Positions 3,617 to 18,800 of a stretch of 18,800 nucleotides of DNA are shown piece by piece (positions within the stretch are counted from its first letter, which is position 1; every line of letters starts with the position of its first letter). The DNA is taken from the IMG/VR virus record IMGVR_UViG_3300035191_000049; one strand, 5' to 3'. Below the pieces are notes generated by a model. The model was not told the origin of the DNA. It saw nothing but the letters and a program-made list of their open reading frames with translations, and made no database searches. The position numbers and the translations under genes were made by a program. This stretch comes from a virus.

Positions 3617-4309
3617 TCAGAACCCCGTTTCCATTGCCTCTCGACTCTGCTTCCTAAATCTCACAACAAACTGCAATCCGGCTTTATCGATTGGCTGCCT
3701 GGTGTACGCTTTCAGGTATGTCGAGCATACAAATTCAACTGCCAAGCCAAGCTTCCTTGCCAGCGACACGAAAAACCCCGCGGGGAACCTTGCCCCGTTG
3801 AGTTCCCCGTCTCTCCAGGGATGCATTCCACTGGTTGTGTGCTCACCGTTCAACGACTCGTTGTAAGTAGAGAAGTAAACTCCATTTTCAGCCATACGAC
3901 CAAACACAGCGCCCAGGCATGCTTCAACCTGAGAGGGCGTCATATGCGTCATGACCGAGTGAGACCAGGCGAAGTCAAACCGAATCCCCTCGGGCAACAA
4001 AGAAAGATCAAAATCCGTCGACTGAAAAAGAGTAGCTTTCTTATCAACCAGGCCCTGAAGGACGATCTCTTCGCGAGCTGCAGACAGGACGTGTTCGTTG
4101 TGATCAAGGCCAAAATAGTGTCCAGGCTCCAAGTAGTCGATGAAAAAACGTCCAGCCCGCAGTGCCCCACAGCCCACCTCAAGCATGTAGTGGGAAGGAA
4201 CAAGACCATGAGCTTTGGCAAATTCAAATAGAAGCTCTCCATCCTCCCAGGTTTCACAGCCGTGGATTTCTTTTGTACGCCACCACTTATCGCTCGTCGG
4301 CTTAGTCAT
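3617..4309 (-). CDS. class I SAM-dependent methyltransferase
   Basis: Rossmann motif I YMLEVGCGALRAG followed by an acidic residue. A GAGGGG Shine-Dalgarno site lies about 9 nt upstream. This segment has lower GC (about 50%) than the rest of the window. Confidence 0.65.
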   Translation of the reverse strand: MTKPTSDKWWRTKEIHGCETWEDGELLFEFAKAHGLVPSHYMLEVGCGALRAGRFFIDYLEPGHYFGLDHNEHVLSAAREEIVLQGLVDKKATLFQSTDFDLSLLPEGIRFDFAWSHSVMTHMTPSQVEACLGAVFGRMAENGVYFSTYNESLNGEHTTSGMHPWRDGELNGARFPAGFFVSLARKLGLAVEFVCSTYLKAYTRQPIDKAGLQFVVRFRKQSREAMETGF

Positions 4310-4381: not shown

Positions 4382-4618
4382 TCACCGCGAGGATAGACCC
4401 CAATCGTCCCTCACCCCCTCCACCTCTGCCCCGGTACATACCACCCTCGCCACAAAGACCATCACCATCCAGGTAAAAATGATCACTGCTAGCCACAGTA
4501 AAAATCCCAGAGTAGCGCTCCGGACCAACTCCAAAGCACCCTCCTTCTTTCTCTGTTGCATGATGCTCGTGTTTAGCACGTTCATCCTGCAGAAGTCATG
4601 TTCGCTGCGTTTAGCCAA
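4382..4618 (-). CDS. small membrane protein (one TM helix, LGFLLWLAVIIFTWMVMVFVA)
   Basis: ORF-track ORF with a hydrophobic core. The true start may be the internal Met at 4585. Confidence 0.35.
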   Translation of the reverse strand: MAKRSEHDFCRMNVLNTSIMQQRKKEGALELVRSATLGFLLWLAVIIFTWMVMVFVARVVCTGAEVEGVRDDWGLSSR

Positions 4619-5312
4619 CTCTCAGCTTTGCCACACCCCAAGCGTGGTCGTAAATGTGCATCCCCTTGCAACTCCAGATGATTTCACCGGCCGTGACGGT
4701 AACGTCATCAGTACTGATGCACTCGGCCATATACTCCTGCATGAGCCTCACAGCGGCGATATTCGCCGGGAAGCCGTTCCAGAGGTCATTCGACCTGATG
4801 TAGACGAAGAAGTGCAACTCGGGCTCTTCTCCCTCTCGGAGCCCTGATGGGGAGAAAATTCTGGTGTCAATTTGTCGCAGACAGGGCGGGTCATCCAGCG
4901 TTATGTCTTCAGGACGGGCGACAGCAATGCACTCCTGGTTGGAGCCGAAACCGTTTCTGCGGTAGCGGTTGATGATGGCCTCCATCTGGGGAGCCACTCG
5001 CTCGCCATAGGTGTACAGCTCATTTTCCTTGAGAGGCTGGTCTGTCATTAAATAGGGAAGGTACTCCTCTATATATTCCATGGTCGTTGGAGGAGGCACG
5101 TGTGAGAGGTGCTGAGGCATCTCAGGAACGAGGGGGCGCACGCCTGGGTGGGTGACCCGTATCTCCACCCAGTCAAGCTCCCAGCGCTTCTGGCCCTCAT
5201 AGGAACCATGATCAACGACCCACTGTCGCCCATGGGTAAGAACTGCATCGACGGTTTGAAACCAGGCATCGGGCAGGTCCCTGGCTTTGATGTGAATTGG
5301 CTTCAAGGACAT
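4611..5312 (-). CDS. thymidylate synthase-fold enzyme (ThyA/dUMP hydroxymethylase family), divergent
   Basis: Aligns by eye to ThyA core motifs: YTYGERV (compare pVYGkQWR), DDPPCL (catalytic Cys of LAPCH), FVYIRSNDLWNGFPANIAA (compare QLYQRSCDVFLGLPFNIAS, Asn retained), and IIWSCKGMHIYDHAW (compare fVWTGGDTHLYSNH). The ATG at 5312 overlaps the upstream stop as TGATG. Confidence 0.75.
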   Translation of the reverse strand: MSLKPIHIKARDLPDAWFQTVDAVLTHGRQWVVDHGSYEGQKRWELDWVEIRVTHPGVRPLVPEMPQHLSHVPPPTTMEYIEEYLPYLMTDQPLKENELYTYGERVAPQMEAIINRYRRNGFGSNQECIAVARPEDITLDDPPCLRQIDTRIFSPSGLREGEEPELHFFVYIRSNDLWNGFPANIAAVRLMQEYMAECISTDDVTVTAGEIIWSCKGMHIYDHAWGVAKLRVG

Positions 5313-5533
5313 CAACTTTTCTCCTGGGGTCCTACCCCAGCGAGTGGCATCACGTCGATGTACAACCCACGCCAGCCACCTTCAAGCATTTGTCGAACAA
5401 AATAAACGTCCTGAGGATTACCTATCCATACAAAAACCTTCTTGCCGCCGTAAGCCACTCGGACGTCCTTTATCCCATGCACCTTGGTGAGGTGCCCATA
5501 CACAGCTTCAACGATCCCGTCGAAGCGCCTCAT
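5312..5533 (-). CDS. hypothetical protein (73 aa)
   Basis: ORF-track ORF. It is coupled by ATGA and TGATG overlaps to both neighbouring genes. Confidence 0.45.
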   Translation of the reverse strand: MRRFDGIVEAVYGHLTKVHGIKDVRVAYGGKKVFVWIGNPQDVYFVRQMLEGGWRGLYIDVMPLAGVGPQEKS

Positions 5534-6171: not shown

Positions 6172-6681
6172 CTAATCCTCCTGCTCGATCACCTGAGGAG
6201 CAGGAGGAAGAAGAGCCGTCGCGCTGTTGTTCAGGATCTCCGGGAGTCGAGGACCGATGGCCTCGGCGACGGTACGTCCATCGCTACCGACGAGCCATGG
6301 CAGGAAGAGCTGCTCGGGCGTGATGATGCCGTTCTCGATGGCCTCGAAGGCGCCCTTGAGAAAAATGCTCAGCACGCGGTGCTCTCGCCATCCTCGGGAC
6401 GCCTTGAGACGCTTGAACTTGTCCGGGAGCAAGGTCCCGTGCCGCCTGTGCTTGGCCTCCTCCTTGAGCTTTTCGTCATCAGGTAGGGCGACGTTCATGC
6501 GCGCGTGGTAGCTGACACCTTCATGCTGCCAGACGAACTCCAGCATAACCCTGTAGTTCTCGAAATTTTCCGACCACCGAATCCCGGTTACGCCCCACAA
6601 ACGGAGCAGGTCGGTGATTTCCTCCCTGGACTCACCTGGCGGGACTACCGTGTTCTCGGCATACTTCCTCTTCTTGGGCAT
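6172..6681 (-). CDS. hypothetical protein (169 aa), basic N-terminus
   Basis: ORF-track ORF with a GGAG Shine-Dalgarno site 6 nt upstream. It overlaps the 3' end of the radical SAM gene by about 50 nt. Confidence 0.5.
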   Translation of the reverse strand: MPKKRKYAENTVVPPGESREEITDLLRLWGVTGIRWSENFENYRVMLEFVWQHEGVSYHARMNVALPDDEKLKEEAKHRRHGTLLPDKFKRLKASRGWREHRVLSIFLKGAFEAIENGIITPEQLFLPWLVGSDGRTVAEAIGPRLPEILNNSATALLPPAPQVIEQED

Positions 6682-7420
6682 CTTTCTCTCCGATTGCTTT
6701 GAGATGAAGGGGGCTCAGGTTCGAGTTGAGCCCACAACGGTTGCACTTCATGGTTTTGAGATTGCGCTCAATGGTCAGGACGTCATCGTGGACAGTCCCG
6801 ATTGAGTGGCAGGTGTCGGCCTCGCCAGTAACGATGGTGCCGTCGACGTTGACAGCCGGGCTGCAATGTTTCCCCATCTGCTCGATCGCCCTGATGCCAC
6901 CAGCAAGGCCACCAGTGCTCCTCGTCGCGCTTCTCAGATTGAAGCACGTAGGACTGATACGGGTGGGCTTGATACGATTCTCTTTCGTCCTGCGACAGGG
7001 AAAAATAACGCGGAGGTTCGACTCGAAGCTGACTCCAGGGATACGTCGAAACTTTTCCCTGGCGAGGATCTTCGGATAGTAGCGCGGATCGTTCGTCACC
7101 TGGATGGGCAGCTCCAACTCGCGAGCGAGCTTCACTTTCTCCGGATCATCGATCCATGAGCCGTTCGTTGTGATGAGCGTGGCCTGGTGATAGACGTGAA
7201 ACTTGTCGAGTCGCCTCAAATGGCCTGCCATCTCTTCGAGCTTCGGATGCTCGAAGGGCTCTCCTCCGGTGAGTAGAATGACCTTGGCGGCGACACTCTG
7301 AGCAAAATCGACAGCGGCCTTAAACGTCTCCATAGTCATGTGCTCGCCATCTGGACCTGAGGAATCGACCATGCAGTGCTTGCACCCCATGGTGCAGCAA
7401 TTCGTGACACGGATCAGCAT
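6632..7420 (-). CDS. radical SAM enzyme, QueE/NrdG/PflA-like (paralog 1)
   Basis: N-terminal CTMGCKHC (Cx3Cx2C) and LTGGEPFEHP (GGEP SAM-binding motif). C-terminal extra Cys pairs, ending in CNRCGL. A GAGGGGG Shine-Dalgarno site is present. Parallel in sequence to the gene at 10111-10929. Confidence 0.75.
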   Translation of the reverse strand: MLIRVTNCCTMGCKHCMVDSSGPDGEHMTMETFKAAVDFAQSVAAKVILLTGGEPFEHPKLEEMAGHLRRLDKFHVYHQATLITTNGSWIDDPEKVKLARELELPIQVTNDPRYYPKILAREKFRRIPGVSFESNLRVIFPCRRTKENRIKPTRISPTCFNLRSATRSTGGLAGGIRAIEQMGKHCSPAVNVDGTIVTGEADTCHSIGTVHDDVLTIERNLKTMKCNRCGLNSNLSPLHLKAIGEKDAQEEEVCREHGSPAR

Positions 7421-9171: not shown

Positions 9172-9717
9172 TCACCCACTTGCGCCTCCCTGTGCCCACC
9201 GTTCGAAGTCGACCTCTCGCATGTGACCGCTCTTCTTAAAGATGGGAAAAAGACCCATGGGTCCATCGGGCGGAAACATCTCGGCGTCCTTGCCCATGAC
9301 GGGCTCGAAGTTGCAGCCCTGAAGGATCAGGGCCACAAACTCAGAACAGGAGACCTTGTTGTGATTGATGATGGGGTTGAACCACTCGACTCCCGTCACC
9401 TTGTAGAGCGCAAGGAGGATGCCGTTCAGGATGACGGCCTTGAAATCGTATTTCTTGTTAACGTAGTTACGCGCCTTTCGCATCCCCTCCTCGATATCCA
9501 GTCCGACGACCTCGAAGCACATCCAGTCGTCGTAGTTTTTTTTGAGAAGCTCGACTCGCTGGGGAATGACGCCGTCGGAAATAGCATGGGTGACCCACTG
9601 GCCTCCCCACACCGGATCCGTGTAACCCACCCAGGCGTGGTTCCAGTTACCTCCCGTCGCCTTGCGAATGAGCCAACCGAGAAAGTTGTTCGACCTGCTG
9701 AATCCAACGACAATCAT
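9172..9717 (-). CDS. permuted papain-fold enzyme (LRAT-like / NlpC-P60 superfamily), thiol hydrolase or acyltransferase
   Basis: A His-containing segment (NWNHAWVGY) lies N-terminal to a Cys box (SCSEFV, compare LRAT NCEHF). That is the permuted order. The start at 9717 forms an ATGA overlap with the SLOG gene's stop. Confidence 0.5.
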   Translation of the reverse strand: MIVVGFSRSNNFLGWLIRKATGGNWNHAWVGYTDPVWGGQWVTHAISDGVIPQRVELLKKNYDDWMCFEVVGLDIEEGMRKARNYVNKKYDFKAVILNGILLALYKVTGVEWFNPIINHNKVSCSEFVALILQGCNFEPVMGKDAEMFPPDGPMGLFPIFKKSGHMREVDFERWAQGGASG

Positions 9718-10190
9718 CTCAGCCTCTTGAAGATTTCCATGCACCGGAACTTTGCTGTCTCCTGAGCACCTGGAAATCCACTCTCACGGGGGCCGGCGAC
9801 GTTGATGACCTCAAAGTTGGTTAGCAGCGAGGCAAGGTGGTCGTAGCCATCGCTCTCGTTGGGAAACATGTGCAGCTCGTTGATGATGTCGAACCAGGGC
9901 TTTTCCAGTTTGCGGCACAAGCGCACCGTGAGAGCTGTTCCCGTCGAATCAGGGATGCTGGGACAGAGGATGAGAGTCGCGTCCGAGTCCCGGACGTTCC
10001 ACTCCGTGCGCTGAGGATAGTTCGACGTCGGCGCCTCCTGGAGCCTGCGGTATTTCTGGGGGATCTTGCCGTCCTCAGCTCGACGTCCCAGGGGACACCA
10101 GCCCCCTATCTCAATGCCCAGCTTCAGCGCCGCATCGAGACCACCTCGATCGACCCCTGTCTGACCGCCTGATATGACTTTTTTCAACAT
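9714..10190 (-). CDS. SLOG-superfamily protein ('putative molybdenum-carrier'/YpsA-like)
   Basis: The N-terminus ISGGQTGVDRGGLDAALKLGIEIGGWCPLGRRAEDG matches the signature start of the MoCo-carrier-like SLOG family. Downstream TEWNVRDSDATLIL follows. Confidence 0.6.
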   Translation of the reverse strand: MLKKVISGGQTGVDRGGLDAALKLGIEIGGWCPLGRRAEDGKIPQKYRRLQEAPTSNYPQRTEWNVRDSDATLILCPSIPDSTGTALTVRLCRKLEKPWFDIINELHMFPNESDGYDHLASLLTNFEVINVAGPRESGFPGAQETAKFRCMEIFKRLR

Positions 10191-10929
10191 CCTTCAACCC
10201 GCACTTTCCGCAGGGGAGTATTGTTCGTATTCTCTCCATCGCCGCCCTTGACGCCGATTTCCAGTCGGCGCGCAGCTCATCGATCGTCGTCACCTTCATG
10301 CAGCAATCAAGCGGCCCCATTCGGACCTCTCCCCCGGGATGCACGTGAATGCTGCACGTTCCGTCCAACGCTTCCCACATGCGAACGAACGACCGGAAGT
10401 TTGCATCGCCTGCTCCGCGCTTCAATAGTCTGTTCGCGTGCACGCAGTAGCGATTCTTTTCTCTGATTTTCGTTCCAGGAGGAGGTTTCCAGCCGCGCCT
10501 TTTCGCCTTCTCTCCGACGTATATTGAACTTAGATAGCTGATAACCTTCACGTTCTTCAACGCTCGCAGCTCATCAACGAAGTCGAGCTGCGGATAGAAC
10601 CGAAAGTCAGCGGTCACCTGGAATGCGACAGGCGCCAAGGACTTGATCTCTGCGAGGCGCCCTCTGAGCAGGGCGCCACTCGTCCCGACCCTCACGATAA
10701 AACCATGCTCCAGCGCAGCGTCACGAAGGGTCTTCACGACTTCCCAAAAAAGCGGATGTTCGAGCGGCTCGCCACCAGCTATGCCCAGGTCGTTCGAGCC
10801 GATCTTTTTGAAGACGCGAAGCGTTTCTTCGAGCGTCTCCTTGCTCATGTGCTCGGCACCGGGACCGGTCTTCGACACCAGGCAGTGATCACAATCGAGG
10901 GAGCACCGATATGTGAGCATGATGACCAT
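10111..10929 (-). CDS. radical SAM enzyme, QueE/NrdG/PflA-like (paralog 2)
   Basis: CSLDCDHC (Cx3Cx2C) and IAGGEPLEHP. C-terminal Cys pairs, ending in CGKCGL. Same architecture as the gene at 6632-7420. Confidence 0.75.
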   Translation of the reverse strand: MVIMLTYRCSLDCDHCLVSKTGPGAEHMSKETLEETLRVFKKIGSNDLGIAGGEPLEHPLFWEVVKTLRDAALEHGFIVRVGTSGALLRGRLAEIKSLAPVAFQVTADFRFYPQLDFVDELRALKNVKVISYLSSIYVGEKAKRRGWKPPPGTKIREKNRYCVHANRLLKRGAGDANFRSFVRMWEALDGTCSIHVHPGGEVRMGPLDCCMKVTTIDELRADWKSASRAAMERIRTILPCGKCGLKDVEKSHIRRSDRGRSRWSRCGAEAGH

Positions 10930-12488: not shown

Positions 12489-13532
12489 CTATAGACGCCT
12501 CATCTCGAACTGGAGCGAACGGATCTTTTGGAGCAGCCCATCAACGCCCTGGAATATTTTCCTAACGCGATCCCTTGTCGTCTTTGGCCAGTTGTCCTTG
12601 TCATCGATACTGCCGAGCACTTTATTGGCCTCAAATTCCAGCTCGTCAACGGCTTGGACGGCATCAAACACATCGAACATTTTTTTCTTCTCGGGCACGA
12701 CGGACATGACGACCACATCTTTGGGAATGCTGTAGATCGGGCCACGAAGGATGTAGGCAACCTTCATCCTCAGGACGTTCCCAGTGTATCCCTGGTCAGG
12801 AGGACCAAAGTAGGTCTCGTCAGCCGTTACACCGGCACCTGTCGTCCCTGGGTTCCACTCCTTCAGAACGAGAATGTCGCCCTTCTCGAAGTCACGATCG
12901 TTCTTGCGAACGTCGAAGGTCTTCTCACCCGACTTCATTGCGCGGAATTCGGCTGGCCACGTCTTCAACTCGTGCTCGACGGGCTCACGCTTTTCATGTC
13001 GGCGCCTGAACATCTCCAGCGTCTTGTCAGGAGCACCTACTAAAACATTTCGATCGCCCACTGGATAGACACGTTCTGGATCCGCGCCCATCAGCTCCAC
13101 CGTCTCCTCGACGGAGATTGAGTCGGGCACTGGATCGCTAAACGGAGGCGACGCAGGATAGTCACCGCCGAGCCGCTCCATGAAGCCTACATCCAGCGGG
13201 GCGTCATCACCTTCTTCTTCATGCTTCAAGAGAGCGTCGATCTCTTCCTTCTGTCGCTGCTTCTCGGCCTCGTAGTCGCGGTCCCACTGGGCCAGTTGCT
13301 CTTTCGTGGCAGGCATGTGCTCGCCAGGCTTTCGACAAGCCTCTGGGTCATCGACAAGATGCGGCTCTTGACACCAACCGGAATTCTTTTCTCGCTCGAC
13401 TAGCCCCTTAAAAACAGGGCATTCAGACGTTTCCTTGGTCACTTCTATCGATTCATATTTGCAGCCGTGGACGGGGCAGCAGTGTGTAATGTGGACCCCC
13501 CAGCCCTCCGGTAGTTCTTCTTCGGACATCAT
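12489..13532 (-). CDS. ASCH/DUF3850 (PUA-like) domain protein with Cys/His-rich N-terminus
   Basis: The C-terminal KTWPAEFRAMKSGEKTFDVRKNDRDFEKGDILVLKEW...GYTGNVLRMKVAYI matches the DUF3850/ASCH signature. The N-terminus HCCPVHGC...ECPVFKG is a metal-binding cluster. Confidence 0.6.
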   Translation of the reverse strand: MMSEEELPEGWGVHITHCCPVHGCKYESIEVTKETSECPVFKGLVEREKNSGWCQEPHLVDDPEACRKPGEHMPATKEQLAQWDRDYEAEKQRQKEEIDALLKHEEEGDDAPLDVGFMERLGGDYPASPPFSDPVPDSISVEETVELMGADPERVYPVGDRNVLVGAPDKTLEMFRRRHEKREPVEHELKTWPAEFRAMKSGEKTFDVRKNDRDFEKGDILVLKEWNPGTTGAGVTADETYFGPPDQGYTGNVLRMKVAYILRGPIYSIPKDVVVMSVVPEKKKMFDVFDAVQAVDELEFEANKVLGSIDDKDNWPKTTRDRVRKIFQGVDGLLQKIRSLQFEMRRL

Positions 13533-14137
13533 TCTTCTCCGGGTAAAAAATCCTCTTTTCTGAAGATGGACCAGAGCTGCAGCCCGTTCTCACGGAGCAG
13601 CTCCTCTCCGCCTTCCTGACGGTCGACGACGGCGAGGACGCCCACGACGTTGAGATTCTCCTCGCGAAGCGTCTCGACCGCCTTGAGCGACGAGCCACCG
13701 GACGTGACGACGTCCTCGATGGCAAGGACGCGGCAATCGTTCGAGACCATCCGCTCTCCGTCGAGATCGTAGAGACCCTCGACAGACTGCTTGCGCCCGT
13801 GGCCCTTCTTGTCCAGACGAGGTATGAGCCATGGGATCTTCTTCGCGAAGGGTCCGCCGACGCCCATCAGTCGCGCAACGAGCAGGAGACCTCCCAGCGG
13901 CACAGGAGCGAGCGCCCAGTTCACCCCCGACGGTGTGACGCAGTCCAGGCCGAAGTGGAGAGCGCCCCCGAGGTGCTCACCCACCGAGGGGTGGCAGGCA
14001 GCCAGACGGCAGTCGACGTAGAACTTACTTTTTCGCCCCGAGGCGAGCGTCAGCTCCCTCTCCGTCGAGACCGCGTTGTTCAGCATCGCGTCCTTCAGAC
14101 GCCTCCAAACACGGATCTTCATGATCTCTTCGCGCAT
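13529..14137 (-). CDS. type I phosphoribosyltransferase, orotate-PRTase (PyrE) family
   Basis: LASGRKSKFYVDCR (compare PyrE LKSGRKSPYFF). The PRPP motif VLAIEDVVTSGGS. VVDRQEGG (compare PyrE LDRQERG). The start is ambiguous between 14086, 14137 and 14164. Confidence 0.7.
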   Translation of the reverse strand: MREEIMKIRVWRRLKDAMLNNAVSTERELTLASGRKSKFYVDCRLAACHPSVGEHLGGALHFGLDCVTPSGVNWALAPVPLGGLLLVARLMGVGGPFAKKIPWLIPRLDKKGHGRKQSVEGLYDLDGERMVSNDCRVLAIEDVVTSGGSSLKAVETLREENLNVVGVLAVVDRQEGGEELLRENGLQLWSIFRKEDFLPGEE

Positions 14138-14453
14138 CGACTCCGGGGTCTCCATCGTGCTCATATCTCTCCTCGTCTAGCATCGCGTCGAGCATCTCGG
14201 CCTCGGCGTCCACCGCCTTGCGAGAGCTGCTGTCCGCGAGCTTCTTCCTGATCCCCCTGGCAATCGTCGCCGGGTTGCCGCCCATGTTGAAATGAAACCC
14301 ACTCGCACCCCATGAGACGTAAAGGCGCAGGCCGGGGATGAGACGGATCGAGGTCCCGATCCGTGGGTTCAGCATTCTTGCTGCCGCCTTGGTCGTCTTG
14401 GAGACAATTTTTTTATTGAGTGGCTTACTAGCTAGGGACTTCTGGGATGGCAT
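14025..14453 (-). CDS. possible hypothetical protein overlapping the PRTase 5' end
   Basis: The N-terminal 80 aa have a protein-like frame. The C-terminus is charged and low-complexity. It overlaps the PRTase start by at least 60 nt. The call is uncertain. Confidence 0.2.
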   Translation of the reverse strand: MPSQKSLASKPLNKKIVSKTTKAAARMLNPRIGTSIRLIPGLRLYVSWGASGFHFNMGGNPATIARGIRKKLADSSSRKAVDAEAEMLDAMLDEERYEHDGDPGVDARRDHEDPCLEASEGRDAEQRGLDGEGADARLGAKK

Positions 14454-15531
14454 TATAAAACTCCCCTCCCAGCATCTTCCCGGTTTTTTTCTTACCAAGA
14501 AGATACATCTCTTCGAGATGGGGACCCTTTCCGTTCTTGCGCCCAGGATAAACATCAGGTTCCCACTGGCCATCTGATGTCAATGAACCGAACCGAGACG
14601 TGACGATGTCCGGCCCATAAAAACCACGAGACTTGACAATGTGGCCGTACTCGGAGCCGGCGATCCAGGCACCCCACTGTTTGAAGAAAAAACTGACGTG
14701 CGACTTCTCGCACTGCTCTTTGATGTCGTGGACCCACCGGGGGTGCATGGGACGAGCACCAGGGCCACTCTCTCCGCCCACGATCACCCACTGGATGCCG
14801 CGGTCACGAGCTGCCCAATACTTGAAGTCGTCCCACTCTCCCGGATTGGCGATTGGGTATGTAGCGTCCTCTTCTACCTCGCCGATCCCTGGCATCCGTA
14901 GCTTGACCGGCCCGAGCAGCGGTTCGAGGGAGAGGAATCGAATTCGAGCCGGCACCCTGAGCAGGTGGGGGATGCGCAGGTCGGCTGCTTCCTGATTTTC
15001 GACGGAGACGCCGCACCAGATGTGAGGAGGGAGCCACGCCTTTCTGACACGAGCATCGCGCTCTTCGATCTCGTCGAGCCCAACACAGATCTCGACAGGA
15101 CCCTTGGGCTCGTAGGGCGTGACCCATTTCTGAACGTACTTCGCCATGCGCTCGGGGCGCTTGGTCAGGATGAGATAGACGTGATGGTCGGCCTCGAACA
15201 TCATTTCGAAGACCTTGTCGATCCACTCGTCTGGCACCGATTGATGGAACAGGTCGCCCATCAGGCAGATAGCGATGCGGCGAGAGCGGGTCCACCGATT
15301 CGGCTTCTCCAGCTCCTTCTCGAAGAGCTTGGCCTGACCGGTCCAATTGCCGTCTTTAGTCAGCCCGTGAAAGTGCTCTCCAGGCTTCGAAAAACGCGCT
15401 GCCTGACGTTCGGCCCAGCAGTTATCACAACCGCCGAGGTTGTTGTAGAATTCCTCCTCGTCTTCGTGTGAACAGCCCTTCACAGGGTTGAGCGTCGCGT
15501 CGACGTATTCTATTTTTGTCCGATCGCCCAT
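14428..15531 (-). CDS. phage Gp37/Gp68 family protein (DUF5131), three-Cys motif
   Basis: The N-terminus DRTKIEYVDATLNPVKGC...GGCDNCWAE matches the family signature (tkIeWt..wNp..GC...GCdnCYA). The start is set at the Met that overlaps the upstream stop as TGATG. Confidence 0.6.
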   Translation of the reverse strand: MGDRTKIEYVDATLNPVKGCSHEDEEEFYNNLGGCDNCWAERQAARFSKPGEHFHGLTKDGNWTGQAKLFEKELEKPNRWTRSRRIAICLMGDLFHQSVPDEWIDKVFEMMFEADHHVYLILTKRPERMAKYVQKWVTPYEPKGPVEICVGLDEIEERDARVRKAWLPPHIWCGVSVENQEAADLRIPHLLRVPARIRFLSLEPLLGPVKLRMPGIGEVEEDATYPIANPGEWDDFKYWAARDRGIQWVIVGGESGPGARPMHPRWVHDIKEQCEKSHVSFFFKQWGAWIAGSEYGHIVKSRGFYGPDIVTSRFGSLTSDGQWEPDVYPGRKNGKGPHLEEMYLLGKKKTGKMLGGEFYNAIPEVPS

Positions 15532-16070
15532 CAGGCTGCGTTCTTCTTCCTGGGCCAGAGCTTGTCCTTTGCCCACCGCACCAAACCGCCATGCTCCGGG
15601 GCGTAGGCTTCCATTTCCCCAGAAAGACGGTTCTTATGCATCAGAAAGCACCAGTTCGACCCGCTTTTTCCGATGGCATTACCCTTTAGGAGAAGGAATG
15701 TCTCGTGGACGAGTCCCTCCTTCACTACCTCCGCCCTCTGGACAGAAAGGATTGGAAGGGGGCACTGGTCGAAAAGGCGTTCCCGGCCAACGCCAGGGAA
15801 TACCTCGACGATGCCAGGCTTGCGGATGTAGGCGGTGCCCTCAAATCCATCTTCGAGAACAAACTCATACTGACCCGGACGTACCTTGGGCAGCTTCACG
15901 TGGTCGCCGCTATAGTCGATGCGTTTGGCCAGATAGAGAGCCTCAAAGACGTCGTCGGCGAAGCACACGACTGAACGATAGCGATCAAACGCCCTAAACA
16001 CTGAGACCATATCAGCAACACTGACCCTCATCTCAGGCAGAGGGTGCCTTCCGTCGTCAATGGTGACCAT
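15531..16070 (-). CDS. hypothetical protein (179 aa)
   Basis: ORF-track ORF. A GGAG Shine-Dalgarno site lies 7 nt upstream. Confidence 0.5.
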   Translation of the reverse strand: MVTIDDGRHPLPEMRVSVADMVSVFRAFDRYRSVVCFADDVFEALYLAKRIDYSGDHVKLPKVRPGQYEFVLEDGFEGTAYIRKPGIVEVFPGVGRERLFDQCPLPILSVQRAEVVKEGLVHETFLLLKGNAIGKSGSNWCFLMHKNRLSGEMEAYAPEHGGLVRWAKDKLWPRKKNAA

Positions 16071-16493: not shown

Positions 16494-16985
16494 TCAGATG
16501 CCGTGTTTCCGGATCGAATCCACCATCCTCGTGACGGGCACCCACAGCGCCCGGTCGGCAAGGTAGAATGTGTCAGTGATACACCTCACGCGATCGTACT
16601 GCTCTCGCGTCGTCCACTTCGAATAAGTCTTGTCGCTCAGGCATATTATTTTACCGGTGATGGTACTCACGCAGATATAGCCGCGAGGCTTTGGATCTTT
16701 AACTTCCCAGCTCGACACAGTGTCCACCAAAATATTTCTATAAGGAAAATCCTGAGGACATGTAAATGGAAGTCTGCGGCTTTTTACCTCGAAATACCTT
16801 CCGGACAAGAGAAGATCCGGTCTATTGGCAAAGGTCTTTATCTCGCTGATATTATTTCGAAACGCCAACTCAGGAAGCACCGCCTCAAAACCATTCGCTC
16901 CAAAATAATCAGCGACATATTGCTGCCAGCGGTATCCTTCGAGCAGCTCTTTTTTGAACAGCTCGTCGTTTTCAATCCAGCTCAA
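16494..16985 (-). CDS. PD-(D/E)xK nuclease-fold-like protein, TTG start, in a low-GC island
   Basis: RPDLLLSGRYFEVKS carries a D...E-x-K arrangement. The in-frame upstream region is closed by a TAA, so the only start is the TTG at 16985. GC is about 42% over roughly 16640-16990, against about 60% in flanking genes. Confidence 0.4.
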   Translation of the reverse strand: MSWIENDELFKKELLEGYRWQQYVADYFGANGFEAVLPELAFRNNISEIKTFANRPDLLLSGRYFEVKSRRLPFTCPQDFPYRNILVDTVSSWEVKDPKPRGYICVSTITGKIICLSDKTYSKWTTREQYDRVRCITDTFYLADRALWVPVTRMVDSIRKHGI

Positions 16986-17047: not shown

Positions 17048-17665
17048 TCAGATTGTTCCGGCGCCGCGGGTAAAGTCGGGGATAACCTCCTCGTCGAGGC
17101 AGACCCAAAGATGCAGCACGTAGGGATGAACGTTTACGTAATTTTCTTTCTTTGGAAGCACTTGGAGGGCGGTTCTATCGCCCAGGAAAAGCTCTTTGAC
17201 GTCCCGAAGCTCTTCCCAGGTGGGAAGACGATCCTGGAACGACGTCGACAGGTGCATCCAGCGCCGGCCGTCCTCCTCGCGATCGCCGGAGAGGATGACT
17301 CGCTGCCCCCTGACGGACTGATACCGGGCGCCGTTGAGGTTCGTATCGAGCACCTGCCAGTGGGGAGGAAGGATCTTGGGTAGGTATTCGCTGACCCAGT
17401 CTGCGACCTCGGCATCAAGTACCAACTCGACCTCGCCCTTCGAGAACTTCGCAATGAATTCCAGCTTCTTGCGGACCTCGTCCCACTTATCCATGAGCGC
17501 GAGATTGAAGGCTTCCTCCAGACTGGCGAACACCCAAGAGAATTGCCGCTCGTCGCAGCCCGAAAGCCCCTCACGGGTAAAACCGTAGCTGTCCAGCATC
17601 CGCTTCAGCTTGTCCTTGAGAGCCGCGGGGGTAAGCGGCTTGCGCTTGCGCTTTTTATTGCCCAT
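17048..17665 (-). CDS. hypothetical protein (205 aa) with basic KKRKRK N-terminus
   Basis: ORF-track ORF. Its start overlaps the stop of the kinase gene by 1 nt. Confidence 0.5.
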   Translation of the reverse strand: MGNKKRKRKPLTPAALKDKLKRMLDSYGFTREGLSGCDERQFSWVFASLEEAFNLALMDKWDEVRKKLEFIAKFSKGEVELVLDAEVADWVSEYLPKILPPHWQVLDTNLNGARYQSVRGQRVILSGDREEDGRRWMHLSTSFQDRLPTWEELRDVKELFLGDRTALQVLPKKENYVNVHPYVLHLWVCLDEEVIPDFTRGAGTI

Positions 17666-18372
17666 CAGAAGGATCTAAGGTTGTCTTCGATGGCGGCGAC
17701 GCACGCCTCAAACACCTCATCCTCAGGATGGTTTGCATCTATGTGAACAAAGTGCTTGCCAGGCGCGACATAGGACGAGCCGCCCATCTTCGGAAGCCGG
17801 CGATAGAACTCGGCGAGCCGTACTTGAAGCTCGTCCAGCTCGTAGATTTCTTTCATCTTATGACGGCACTCGCGCCGATTCGCTGCCTCGTCACAATCAA
17901 CGTTGAGAACCAGGACCAGGTCGGGTTCGATGGCATAACTGTGGAGCTTCATCAGCCACTTGAGAAATGACTCCTTATCGACGTGGTCAGAGGTCAACGA
18001 CTGGTAGGCCAATGTCGAATACATGTAGCGATCGCACAACACCCACTTCCCTTTGGCCAGAGCAGGCTCGATGACGTGAGCGATATGGTCCATTCGATCG
18101 GCCACAAACAAAAGGGCCATCGTCTCAGCCGGTGGCTTCCAGCCACCCTGACCATCACAAGGAATGATCCCTCTCAGAATCTTACGAATAAGCTTTCCGC
18201 ATGGTCGCTCCGTCGGCTGATGTTCTGAAGCAACTCCCGGATATTTTCCACTTTCGACAGATACCTGCATGTAGCCGTATAACCGTTGAGCGACTGTTGT
18301 GGTTCCGGATCCGTCAATCCCTTCGAGGACTATGAACTTACCCCTTTTCATCGACCCAATCCTTGCTGTCAT
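17665..18372 (-). CDS. thymidylate kinase-like (d)NMP kinase
   Basis: P-loop KFIVLEGIDGSGTTT. The Tmk DRY motif in LCDRYMYSTLAYQ. The start may be the Met at 18351. Confidence 0.7.
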   Translation of the reverse strand: MTARIGSMKRGKFIVLEGIDGSGTTTVAQRLYGYMQVSVESGKYPGVASEHQPTERPCGKLIRKILRGIIPCDGQGGWKPPAETMALLFVADRMDHIAHVIEPALAKGKWVLCDRYMYSTLAYQSLTSDHVDKESFLKWLMKLHSYAIEPDLVLVLNVDCDEAANRRECRHKMKEIYELDELQVRLAEFYRRLPKMGGSSYVAPGKHFVHIDANHPEDEVFEACVAAIEDNLRSF

Positions 18373-18800
18373 GAAAAGCTATTGGCTTTTCGAGCCGTTT
18401 CTTTATGAGGTCGGTGTCACCTTTCTCGATGGCGAACCACTGGCGCTCCTCGGATTCACAGACAGCAGGCATCGTTCCGCTACCAGCCATGGGATCGAGG
18501 ACCCTGTCACCAGGATTCGTCGCCAGAAGAAGACACCGGCGAATGAGCTTTGTACTGAGCTGGGGTCCGCTCCAGCCCTCGGCCTTGTACTTGGGATGCC
18601 GCACCGTTGGGACATCGGTCCAGATATCGGAGACCGTGACGCCCTCCTTCATCTTACCTCGGTGACCGCCGTAGTCTCGAAGATCCTTCTTGCAGTGGCG
18701 GCACACCTCGATAGGCATCCGCACCTTGTTGAGCACGCGCGGCTTGCCCTTCGAGAAGTGGATGATGCCGTAGTGCGCGCGATAGAGACCCTTAGCGCGG
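18338..18800 (-). CDS. DNA methyltransferase, N6-adenine/N4-cytosine family (C-terminal part, 5'-truncated by the window edge)
   Basis: VLDPMAGSGT, the motif I of the N6_N4 family, lies at the C-terminus, which is the beta-class arrangement. The reading frame stays open to position 18800 (...AHYGIIHFSKGKPRVLNKVRMPIEV). Confidence 0.65.
   Translation of the reverse strand, partial: RAKGLYRAHYGIIHFSKGKPRVLNKVRMPIEVCRHCKKDLRDYGGHRGKMKEGVTVSDIWTDVPTVRHPKYKAEGWSGPQLSTKLIRRCLLLATNPGDRVLDPMAGSGTMPAVCESEERQWFAIEKGDTDLIKKRLEKPIAFHDSKDWVDEKG

Follow-up and report, generated by a model that had tools for sequence, protein, structure and literature searches.

Known pyrE systems

In cyanomyophages, pyrE, the gene for orotate phosphoribosyltransferase (OPRTase), is recognised as an auxiliary gene (PMC1079782, PMC9983427); it is annotated in P-SSM2 (PSSM2_043), P-SSM5 and P-SSM7. 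Phage pyrE is therefore already known from P-SSM2-type cyanophages; we describe a further phage pyrE, of a diverged subfamily, in an 18,800-nt stretch of DNA (here, the window) from the IMG/VR virus record IMGVR_UViG_3300035191_000049:

13529..14164, minus strand: PyrE-like orotate phosphoribosyltransferase coding sequence, stop included (211 aa, ATG-to-stop ORF)

We put at about 75% the probability that this phosphoribosyltransferase (PRTase) gene, as predicted from its sequence, encodes a catalytically competent OPRTase (PyrE, EC 2.4.2.10) and is an accessory metabolic gene of a large uncultured phage. By analogy with some ocean cyanophages, its most likely role would be to boost nucleotide supply in infection. 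We know of no phage PyrE, and of no enzyme of the window's subfamily, that has been assayed.

The cyanomyophage gene, which is grouped here with those of marine IMG/VR contigs, and the window gene are alike in being the single de novo pyrimidine gene of a large phage, in lying among small ORFs with a DNA methylase gene and further genes of nucleotide supply close by, and in matching phrog_32468. They differ in descent: the window PRTase belongs to an independent lineage, is ~30–33% identical to cyanomyophage PyrE and has no neighbours in common with it. With the cellular short-type OPRTases (M. tuberculosis PyrE 5HKF/5HKI, C. diphtheriae 2P1Z and the OPRT domain of human UMP synthase, 2WNS), the window PRTase has in common the fold, the length class, the LxSGR...FYVD hood strand, the R-x3-K-x-H-G flexible loop, the E-D-V-x-T-x-G PRPP motif and the V-D-R-x-x-G base-site arginine. 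Unlike them it is phage-encoded, has ~10 extra residues in the N-terminal helical hairpin of the hood and 6 directly after the catalytic loop (VEGL-YDLDGER), carries Leu in place of the K95 (Mt)/K100 (Ec) lysine, and reads 'HGRK' for 'HGT' and 'APVPLGGLL' for 'GGxTLGADP'. The two insertions are specific to the subfamily and are placed where specificity could be tuned.

Two further kinds of system bear comparison. In pyrF-pyrE modules (bifunctional UMP synthase, bacterial pyrFE), the same two-step logic from orotate to UMP is found as in the operon of another subfamily member, P0124, whereas no pyrF occurs in the roughly 38 kb inspected around the window's PRTase. Phages with hypermodified pyrimidines (SPO1, T4 and the thymidine-hypermodifying phages) have a dUMP or dCMP hydroxymethylase and a kinase. 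The window resembles these in that its gene train encodes an enzyme of the ThyA family together with a nucleotide kinase; it differs in that the kinase is predicted to be an ordinary dTMP kinase, a relative has ThyX in the slot of the ThyA-like gene, and no hypermodification family (hydroxymethylase, DNA kinase/transferase) was matched among the 28 ORFs scanned.

A diverged member of the PyrE family

The preliminary description, made from the sequence alone, had reported a clear match to PyrE on the strength of the SGRKS loop (residues 42–46), the PRPP motif VLAIEDVVTSGGS (146–158) and DRQEGG (181–186). The protein is indeed a member of the PyrE family (OPRTases, type I PRTases). A sequence search of solved structures gave 2p1z as the best match (E = 3.3e-14), followed by the human OPRT domain 2wns (3.3e-13) and M. 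tuberculosis OPRT 5hkf (3.8e-12), with PurR among the weak matches, and the NCBIfam model TIGR00336 (pyrE) aligned over its full length (residues 30–205; E = 3.1e-23). The match is clear in the sense that similarity lies far beyond chance, but the solved enzymes share 25–28% identity with the protein and no cellular PyrE shares more than 45%, and scores fall short of curated cut-offs that are operational naming thresholds rather than biochemical features: 82.4 bits against 106.8 for TIGR00336, and 23.7 against 26.3 for Pfam PF00156, the alignment of which covers the PRPP motif. The subfamily member P0124 also falls below the TIGR00336 cut-off (76.6), and such scores mark the subfamily as an outlier. 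The non-OPRT models of NCBIfam (HPT, APRT, XPRT) reached at most 25.6 bits, on the PRPP motif only, and phrog_32468 ('phosphoribosyl transferase') matched at 2.7e-18. An AF2 model was confident (pLDDT 89.2, pTM 0.88); when its fold was searched in the PDB, the top 45 matches were all OPRTases with probability 1.00 (5hki: E = 1.4e-14, TM 0.81 on the target), and the first non-OPRT match, E. coli APRT 2dy0, ranked 46.

By sequence comparison, the subfamily is both rare and diverged. In a search of 1.84 billion representatives, 4 of the 7849 matches to the PRTase reached E ≤ 1e-30. A neighbour-joining tree places the subfamily on its own deep branch and groups the cyanophage and marine sequences with Synechococcus PyrE. 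Relatives of PyrE occur on 258 IMG/VR contigs, none with more than 40% identity and none with shared neighbours. Among deposited phages, tblastn found no close relative, the matches being 30%-identical 'Listeria phage' fragments only; at E 1e-5, the window protein did not reach the P-SSM phages. Scanning JGI metagenomes added one locus, L087, from the same phage as the relative L003. Marine cyanomyophages are not the only phages with a lone pyrE: large, uncultured phages with GC-rich genomes, of a lineage unrelated to them, appear to have gained a long-diverged PyrE of their own and to have retained it. A separate phage PyrE lineage is consistent with the view that, in infected cells, pyrimidine supply is limited at the PRPP-committing step.

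Active site and predicted reaction

The preliminary description had proposed comparing the substrate-binding residues with those of characterised OPRTases. We took the PRPP-contacting residues of the M. tuberculosis enzyme (MtOPRT) from PMC5430920, and the roles of the flexible-loop Lys, Arg and His from PMC10087573 and PMC5430920. All PRPP-contact residues (MtOPRT) and catalytic residues (E. coli/Salmonella OPRTase) are kept except one loop lysine, and the base site is kept as well. In the alignment, the catalytic loop arginine (Ec R99/Mt R94) corresponds to R116, the essential loop lysine (Ec K103/Mt K98) to K120, the loop histidine (Ec H105) to H122, the acidic pair of the PRPP motif (Mt E120-D121) to E150-D151, its threonine (Mt T124, Ec T128) to T154, Mt R38 to R53, and the arginine of the D-R-x-x-G motif (Ec R156) to R182; all of these are invariant across the subfamily. 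The backbone of the hood strand, Ec F34-F35, aligns with Y49-V50, identical to Mt Y34-V35. From the Salmonella and yeast complexes, we take Y49-V50, T154 and R182 to be the orotate-binding positions. The missing residue is the second loop lysine, replaced by L117 in the window, by V, P or E in P0002, P0003 and P0004, and by Pro in the intermediate sequences P0005 and P0006; three of four subfamily members have extra basic residues (K119, R124, K125) beside the loop. In MtOPRT this lysine, K95 (Ec K100), touches the pyrophosphate of PRPP (PMC5430920).

The mechanism, by homology with the solved OPRTases, as well as substrate, activity, dimer state and expression timing, is inferred. The enzyme would be homodimeric, each subunit having a type I PRTase fold. 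E150-D151 would bind Mg-PRPP at its ribose hydroxyls and T154-S158 at its 5′-phosphate, while R53 and the flexible loop of the partner subunit (R116...K120-G-H122) would close over the pyrophosphate. The N-terminal hood would cover orotate, whose contacts would be the F48-Y49-V50 backbone, T154 and R182, and ribose-5-phosphate would be moved onto N1 of orotate to give OMP and PPi. OMP would then be converted to UMP by PyrF. As no pyrF was seen around the window's PRTase, the enzyme would have to use that of the host; in the relative L170, PyrF is phage-borne. The predicted effect is that the PRPP-committing step of de novo pyrimidine synthesis is raised during replication of a phage genome of more than 100 kb, with the phage thymidylate synthase and dTMP kinase acting further down the same supply line.

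Selection, loss and linkage to PyrF

The PRTase ORF is a genuine gene and is under purifying selection. It has a good Shine–Dalgarno site, read from the sequence as GAGGAG at 14169–14174. Its N terminus is conserved in the relative L169, and downstream of the overlap with a small gene described below, 16 of the 19 substitutions between the two fall at third codon positions (p = 7e-6). Intact ORFs with invariant catalytic residues are present in at least six sequence clusters, and the full catalytic set is kept across 42–70% divergence within the subfamily. One JGI sample has the PRTase starting at Met27, a call that we did not adopt: residues 1–26 are conserved in both L169 and P0002, are confidently predicted to form helix and show the substitution pattern of coding DNA. 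Met4, at 14155, is an alternative start. We also discarded as spurious a 50-aa ORF (14161–14313) whose end overlaps the PRTase start at an ATGA; it lacks a homologue, and its frame is unsupported by the substitution pattern. On the coding strand around the gene, a scan for promoters and terminators found none, and an Rfam scan found no regulatory RNA near it.

In one close relative, L168 (81–83% nucleotide identity), most of the gene is missing:

13549..14152, minus strand: segment absent from L168, which has 24 bp instead (PRTase codons ~5–205)

By blastn, L168 1–636 corresponds to window 14794–14153 and L168 661–1520 to window 13548–12689 (81–82% identity), and tblastn of the PRTase found nothing in L168. 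The DUF5131 gene, the small gene, the DUF3850 gene and the downstream genes are all still there. Because L168 lacks the PRTase but has every neighbour, the PRTase is a dispensable accessory gene and the neighbours are independent of it. The deletion, together with scores under curated family cut-offs, could suggest that the PRTase is a functionless, host-derived passenger in decay and heading for loss. We regard this as highly improbable, given the intact ORFs with invariant catalytic residues, the strong third-position bias, the good Shine–Dalgarno site and the confident fold. An obligatory module of DUF5131, small gene and PRTase was likewise rejected: the arrangement is conserved in L003 (= L087), but L168 keeps it without the PRTase, P0004 (L084) sits in an unrelated gene context and P0124 (L170) also has other neighbours.

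P0124 lies on another mobile contig, L170, in a translationally coupled pyrF-DUF7352-pyrE operon with 4-nt overlaps, two genes downstream of PyrF. The L170 PyrF, at 216.1 bits, clears its cut-off of 193 and carries the DLKLHDIP motif. Since P0124 is operonic with a bona fide PyrF, we infer that the PRTase product would be OMP. The preliminary description had reasoned that an orotate-specific enzyme with homologues beside a complete de novo pyr gene set would indicate simple pyrimidine supply; the P0124 operon is partly in line with this, but around the window's own PRTase there is no pyrF, prs or other pyr gene within ~10 kb on either side.

The patchy occurrence of the PRTase among close relatives also raises a non-metabolic role in conflict, as a PRPP drain or sensor, a binder of a nucleotide signal or a counter to a host defence that starves the phage of pyrimidines, in which case OMP output would not be the selected property. 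Neighbours of a host-takeover type are consistent with such a role: sister contigs encode a DNA methylase, an RNA ligase and a Ro60 vWA protein, and L170 encodes Lar and FHA proteins; moreover, type I PRTase folds serve as regulators elsewhere, PurR being an example. However, a mere binder would not need the full catalytic set that persists through the subfamily's divergence, the linkage to PyrF points to OMP, and no defence or anti-defence family was found in the Pfam, NCBIfam and PHROG scans; we consider a conflict role quite improbable. For the preferred reading, that of a nucleotide-supply OPRTase, the presence–absence pair of window and L168 and the pyrF-pyrE operon of L170 provide material for testing the gene's worth to the phage.

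Other nucleotide genes of the gene train

The PRTase had been described as part of a phage-like operon, and it does lie in a phage-like train of small genes, all on one strand, with matches to PHROGs (phrog_2045 at 1.6e-90, phrog_986, phrog_7839 and phrog_17260). The replicon also has a tRNA array (10 tRNAs and a tmRNA), sister contigs of 56–183 kb encode a DNA methylase and HNH, and no virion genes were seen in the stretch inspected; it is very likely a phage. Two other genes of nucleotide metabolism belong to the train:

17665..18372, minus strand: predicted dTMP kinase (Tmk; PF02223 1.2e-29; TIGR00041 121.9 bits, above the cut-off of 83.25)
4611..5315, minus strand: diverged ThyA-like thymidylate synthase, archaeal/'methanogen' type (PF00303 4.7e-8)

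The PRTase was said to be next to both; all three are in the same train but neither gene is adjacent to it, Tmk being 3.5 kb and 5 genes away and the ThyA-like gene 8.2 kb and 13 genes away. Tmk, which is 52% identical to its homologue in L003, appears to be an ordinary dTMP kinase. The ThyA-like protein scores 63.8 bits with TIGR03283, under the cut-off of 174.55, and in an alignment with PDB entries retains the PPC cysteine, the RSxD motif and the uracil-specifying (dUMP-type) Asn. The syntenic relative L003 has ThyX (PF02511) in its slot, which argues for plain dTMP synthesis.

The preliminary description had joined these genes into a complete route from base to NMP to NDP. The product of OPRTase is the ribonucleotide OMP, and the substrates of ThyA and Tmk are the deoxynucleotides dUMP and dTMP; PyrF, PyrH, ribonucleotide reductase and a dUTPase or dCMP deaminase stand between them, so the three enzymes do not catalyse consecutive steps. 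That route had been offered as one possibly serving a non-canonical pyrimidine. A PRTase retuned to a non-canonical or 5-substituted pyrimidine, or to plain uracil, and feeding the phage nucleic acid pool, would accord with the long branch and rarity of the subfamily, the hood and post-loop insertions, the loss of the K100-equivalent lysine, the score under the equivalog cut-off and the unexplained chemistry of the window, which encodes three radical-SAM-superfamily proteins, a cpYpsA SLOG protein and a SAM methyltransferase besides the very diverged ThyA-like protein. We nevertheless judge it unlikely. Apart from K100, the residues known to contact orotate and PRPP are unchanged; PyrF, with which P0124 is operonic, is an OMP-only enzyme; the L168 neighbours persist after loss of the PRTase, and P0004 is found in an unrelated context; and ThyX in the L003 slot and a standard dTMP kinase point to ordinary thymidylate supply. 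Phage pyrimidine hypermodification, as far as we know, starts from dNMPs or acts on DNA, not on free bases, and uses no PRTase. That the subfamily as a whole may have shifted its specificity to a base other than orotate is similarly doubtful. Candidate bases would be uracil and a modified pyrimidine supplied by the radical-SAM, SLOG or methyltransferase proteins encoded nearby; if this were true, free bases could enter a non-canonical nucleotide pool of the phage through the PRTase. Nothing at the locus points to an exotic DNA base, and this tempting reading is unsupported.

The overlapping small gene

A 142-aa frame overlapping the PRTase start had been noted as unexplained. The overlap is real and is 140 nt long:

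14025..14453, minus strand: conserved small gene (142 aa from the ATG at 14453; Met27 start, 116 aa, according to other gene callers)
14025..14164, minus strand: overlap of small gene and PRTase (140 nt; 46-codon read-through tail of the small gene over PRTase codons 1–46)

Comparison with relatives explains the frame as a real, conserved small gene that has lost its original stop. It is 63% identical over 68 aa to a 99-aa ORF of L003 and has the further homologues P0121–P0123, with the common core LNPRxGTSIxLIPGLRLYVSxGxSGxHFNxGG. Upstream of 14453, GGAGGGGAG forms its Shine–Dalgarno site, and 22 of the 39 substitutions relative to L169 are at its third codon positions (p = 0.0025). It has no Pfam, NCBIfam or PHROG match; a suspected resemblance of the core to DUF4236 was dismissed, as Pfam gave no match even at E ≤ 1. 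In L003 and L168 the gene stops 12 codons past MLDEE, and in the window and L169 it continues. Within the overlap, 12 of the 18 substitutions relative to L169 are at third codon positions of the PRTase, against 2 of 18 at those of the small gene; the 46-codon tail is not under selection. A small conserved gene missed by some gene callers is thereby recovered.

A diverged member of the orotate phosphoribosyltransferase family

The PyrE-like phosphoribosyltransferase (PRTase; window 13529–14164, minus strand) had been matched to PyrE in the preliminary description, and sequence and fold searches confirm this assignment to the orotate phosphoribosyltransferase (OPRTase) family. Its gene is preceded by a Shine–Dalgarno sequence (GAGGAG, 4 nt 5′ of the ATG), and the protein carries the motifs SGRKS (42–46), VLAIEDVVTSGGS (146–158) and DRQEGG (181–186). 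The NCBIfam model TIGR00336 (pyrE) matches it over the full length (3.1e-23), and models of non-OPRTase PRTases in NCBIfam cover the PRPP motif alone. Sequence searches of solved structures returned 2p1z from C. diphtheriae (3.3e-14), the human OPRT domain (3.3e-13) and the M. tuberculosis enzyme, MtOPRT (3.8e-12). When an AlphaFold model (14-sequence input; pLDDT 89.2) was compared with the PDB, ranks 1–45 were all OPRTases and E. coli APRT first appeared at rank 46. By sequence and predicted fold, the protein appears to be an OPRTase. It is nonetheless an outlier within PyrE: it fails to reach the curated cut-off of either TIGR00336 or PF00156, and no cellular PyrE among 5.8 billion clusters exceeds 45% identity to it.

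A profile built from the four closest sequences and searched against 1.84 billion representatives recovered 7,849 PyrE-like proteins, only 4 of them at E ≤ 1e-30; beyond these, ordinary PyrEs follow in a continuum. The subfamily unites the window PRTase with P0002, then P0003, P0004, P0124 and the fragments P0125 and P0130. Its signature, which is not found in cellular enzymes, comprises about 10 residues added in the N-terminal hood hairpin, APVPLGGLL, a catalytic loop P-R-x-x-K-K-G-H-G-R-K and a six-residue insertion following VEGL. In a rough neighbour-joining tree the subfamily forms its own deep branch, whereas Synechococcus PyrE, P-SSM2 and marine IMG/VR contigs form one separate group. 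Phage pyrE has clear precedent as an already known class: P-SSM2, P-SSM5 and P-SSM7 have annotated copies, 258 IMG/VR contigs carry PyrE relatives, and published work treats it as a host-derived gene of myo-cyanophages (PMC1079782, PMC9983427). The window PRTase adds to this class a new member that was acquired independently and is unusually diverged.

Active site

PRTase residues were mapped to E. coli (Ec) and M. tuberculosis (Mt) numbering using sequences that we take to be those of the two reference enzymes. The residues that PMC5430920 and PMC10087573 name fit this numbering.

Active-site positions of the PRTase
Ec R99 / Mt R94: R116, kept
Ec K103 / Mt K98: K120, kept
Ec H105: H122, kept
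Mt R38: R53, kept
Mt E120-D121: E150-D151, kept
Mt T124: T154, kept
Ec R156: R182, kept
Ec K26: A41; MtOPRT also differs (Ser), and all close cellular homologues have Ala
Ec K100 / Mt K95: L117, the sole real change

In MtOPRT, K95 hydrogen-bonds the PRPP pyrophosphate (PMC5430920); most subfamily members have an excess of basic residues beside the loop. The substrate-binding residues had been singled out for comparison with characterised OPRTases, and the known base-contact positions show no difference from a validated enzyme. We favour plain OPRTase activity for nucleotide supply as the predicted function (probability roughly 0.75). Judged from sequence alone, a shifted base specificity is an improbable alternative.

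Gene neighbourhood and loss of the PRTase

All credible window genes lie on the minus strand, packed as a tight train.

Features of the window
18338–18736, minus: N6/N4 DNA methylase, cut
17665–18372, minus: Tmk (TIGR00041, 121.9 bits, above cut-off)
17048–17665, minus: DUF7694
16494–16985 and 15531–16070, minus: two ORFans
14428–15576, minus: DUF5131
14025–14453, minus: small ORF
13529–14164, minus: PRTase, 211 aa
12489–13532, minus: DUF3850/ASCH fusion
10111–10929 and 6632–7420, minus: two small radical-SAM enzymes
9714–10190, minus: circularly permuted YpsA (cpYpsA) SLOG protein
4611–5315, minus: very diverged ThyA-like protein
3617–4309, minus: SAM methyltransferase
322–2882, minus: ten tRNAs and a tmRNA

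Several window proteins match phage families and sister contigs span 56–183 kb, so the element is very probably a large phage; no virion gene was seen within the stretch at hand.

The close relative L168 (81–83% nucleotide identity) aligns with window 14794–14153 and then 13548–12689. Window 14152–13549 (PRTase codons ~5–205) is reduced to 24 bp, and remnants of the first and last PRTase codons are left, which suggests a deletion. L168 still has DUF5131, the small gene, the DUF3850 protein and the genes that follow. This exact loss with neighbours retained argues that the PRTase is a dispensable accessory gene rather than part of a pathway made with its neighbours; P0004 lies in another gene context again. 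The DUF3850/ASCH fusion (347 aa) has a 64-aa C-terminal extension (window 12492–12688, the 3′ end of the gene). The L168 protein (283 aa) is without it, with 8 bp in place of 197 bp, and the DUF3850 protein on the P0002 contig has 128 aa only.

Thymidylate genes and radical-SAM neighbours

An exotic base route through the PRTase, ThyA-like and Tmk proteins, as first proposed, finds no support. OPRTase yields a ribonucleotide and ThyA and Tmk act on dUMP and dTMP, with four or five host steps between, so the steps are not consecutive. By curated score, Tmk is an ordinary dTMP kinase. The Cys nucleophile, the RSxD motif and the Asn that specifies uracil are all retained in the ThyA-like protein. 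L003 (= L087), a syntenic relative, has ThyX (17801–18667) in the ThyA-like slot between homologues of u213 and u129; in these related phages one thymidylate synthase has thus been displaced by a non-orthologous enzyme that also makes dTMP. The window counterpart of this slot, with the same flanking genes, holds the archaeal-type ThyA-like gene and the SAM methyltransferase gene. On the simplest reading, the phage would carry three separate genes that each boost supply along the pyrimidine-to-dTTP line and not a self-contained new-base pathway.

Within 9 kb lie three proteins of the radical-SAM superfamily, to which DUF5131 belongs (PMC9477430): DUF5131/Gp37-Gp68 and two MoaA-like enzymes of ~265 aa, which matched no equivalog. 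The cpYpsA SLOG protein accompanies them. Synteny with L003 extends to cpYpsA, a 433-aa ORFan, one radical-SAM protein and a 169-aa protein with 71% identity, and the radical-SAM/cpYpsA group persists independently of the PRTase.

Linkage to PyrF

P0124 (42% identical) bears the subfamily signature and lies on a 27-kb, one-strand contig of ORFans (L170) that also encodes a C5 DNA methylase and a Lar restriction-alleviation protein. At L170 7019–9358 (also in L171), pyrF (231 aa), DUF7352 and the PRTase gene form a translationally coupled operon with start/stop overlaps of 4 nt, followed by a gene for an FHA-domain protein. This PyrF scores above both of its curated cut-offs (NF001273, 216.1 versus 193; TIGR01740, 156.5 versus 92.3) and contains the catalytic motif DLKLHDIP. 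To our knowledge, PyrF acts on OMP and no other substrate, which argues that its partner PRTase should make OMP. The operon is a mobile two-step orotate-to-UMP module.

The overlapping small gene

The overlap of a 142-aa frame (14025–14453) with the PRTase start, noted earlier without explanation, is real, and the frame is a genuine gene with an unselected read-through tail. Its first ~96 codons share 63% identity with a 99-aa ORF at the same position in L003; near-identical homologues exist and the Shine–Dalgarno sequence is strong. A comparison with the PRTase-bearing relative L169 (~87% nucleotide identity) places 22 of 39 substitutions at third positions of this frame (p = 0.0025). The stop codon lies 12 codons past MLDEE in L003 and L168; it is missing from the window and L169, where the frame continues 46 codons into the PRTase. 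Substitutions in the 140-nt overlap fall at PRTase third positions in 12 of 18 cases (p = 0.004) and at small-gene third positions in 2 of 18, which points to the PRTase N-terminus (start 14164 or 14155) as the constrained reading and to the tail as tolerated read-through in a GC-rich frame. Scans of Pfam, NCBIfam and PHROG gave no family match for the small protein. Besides the PRTase overlap (14025–14164), neighbouring genes share unusually long same-strand overlaps at 15531–15576 (46 nt), 14428–14453 (26), 10111–10190 (80) and 6632–6681 (50); these may also reflect the rarity of stop codons in off-frames of a GC-rich genome.

Other genes

A 190-aa ORF (window 9172–9744), for which Pfam gave no match, weakly matches phrog_1128 (E 1e-8; category ‘moron, auxiliary metabolic gene and host takeover’). 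The tRNA array comprises Pro (two), Ser, Asp, Phe, Gln (two), Asn and Lys (two), together with a full-length tmRNA (536–900; Rfam RF00023, 147.5 bits; tag peptide VNTDNYHEAPLARAA); tmRNAs are uncommon in phages. Beyond the window edge (L001 1978–3158 and sister-contig gene lists) are a cREC_REC domain protein, an RNA-ligase-like protein, an HNH endonuclease and a Ro60-type vWA protein, which with the tRNA/tmRNA array suggest a theme of RNA repair or translation maintenance.
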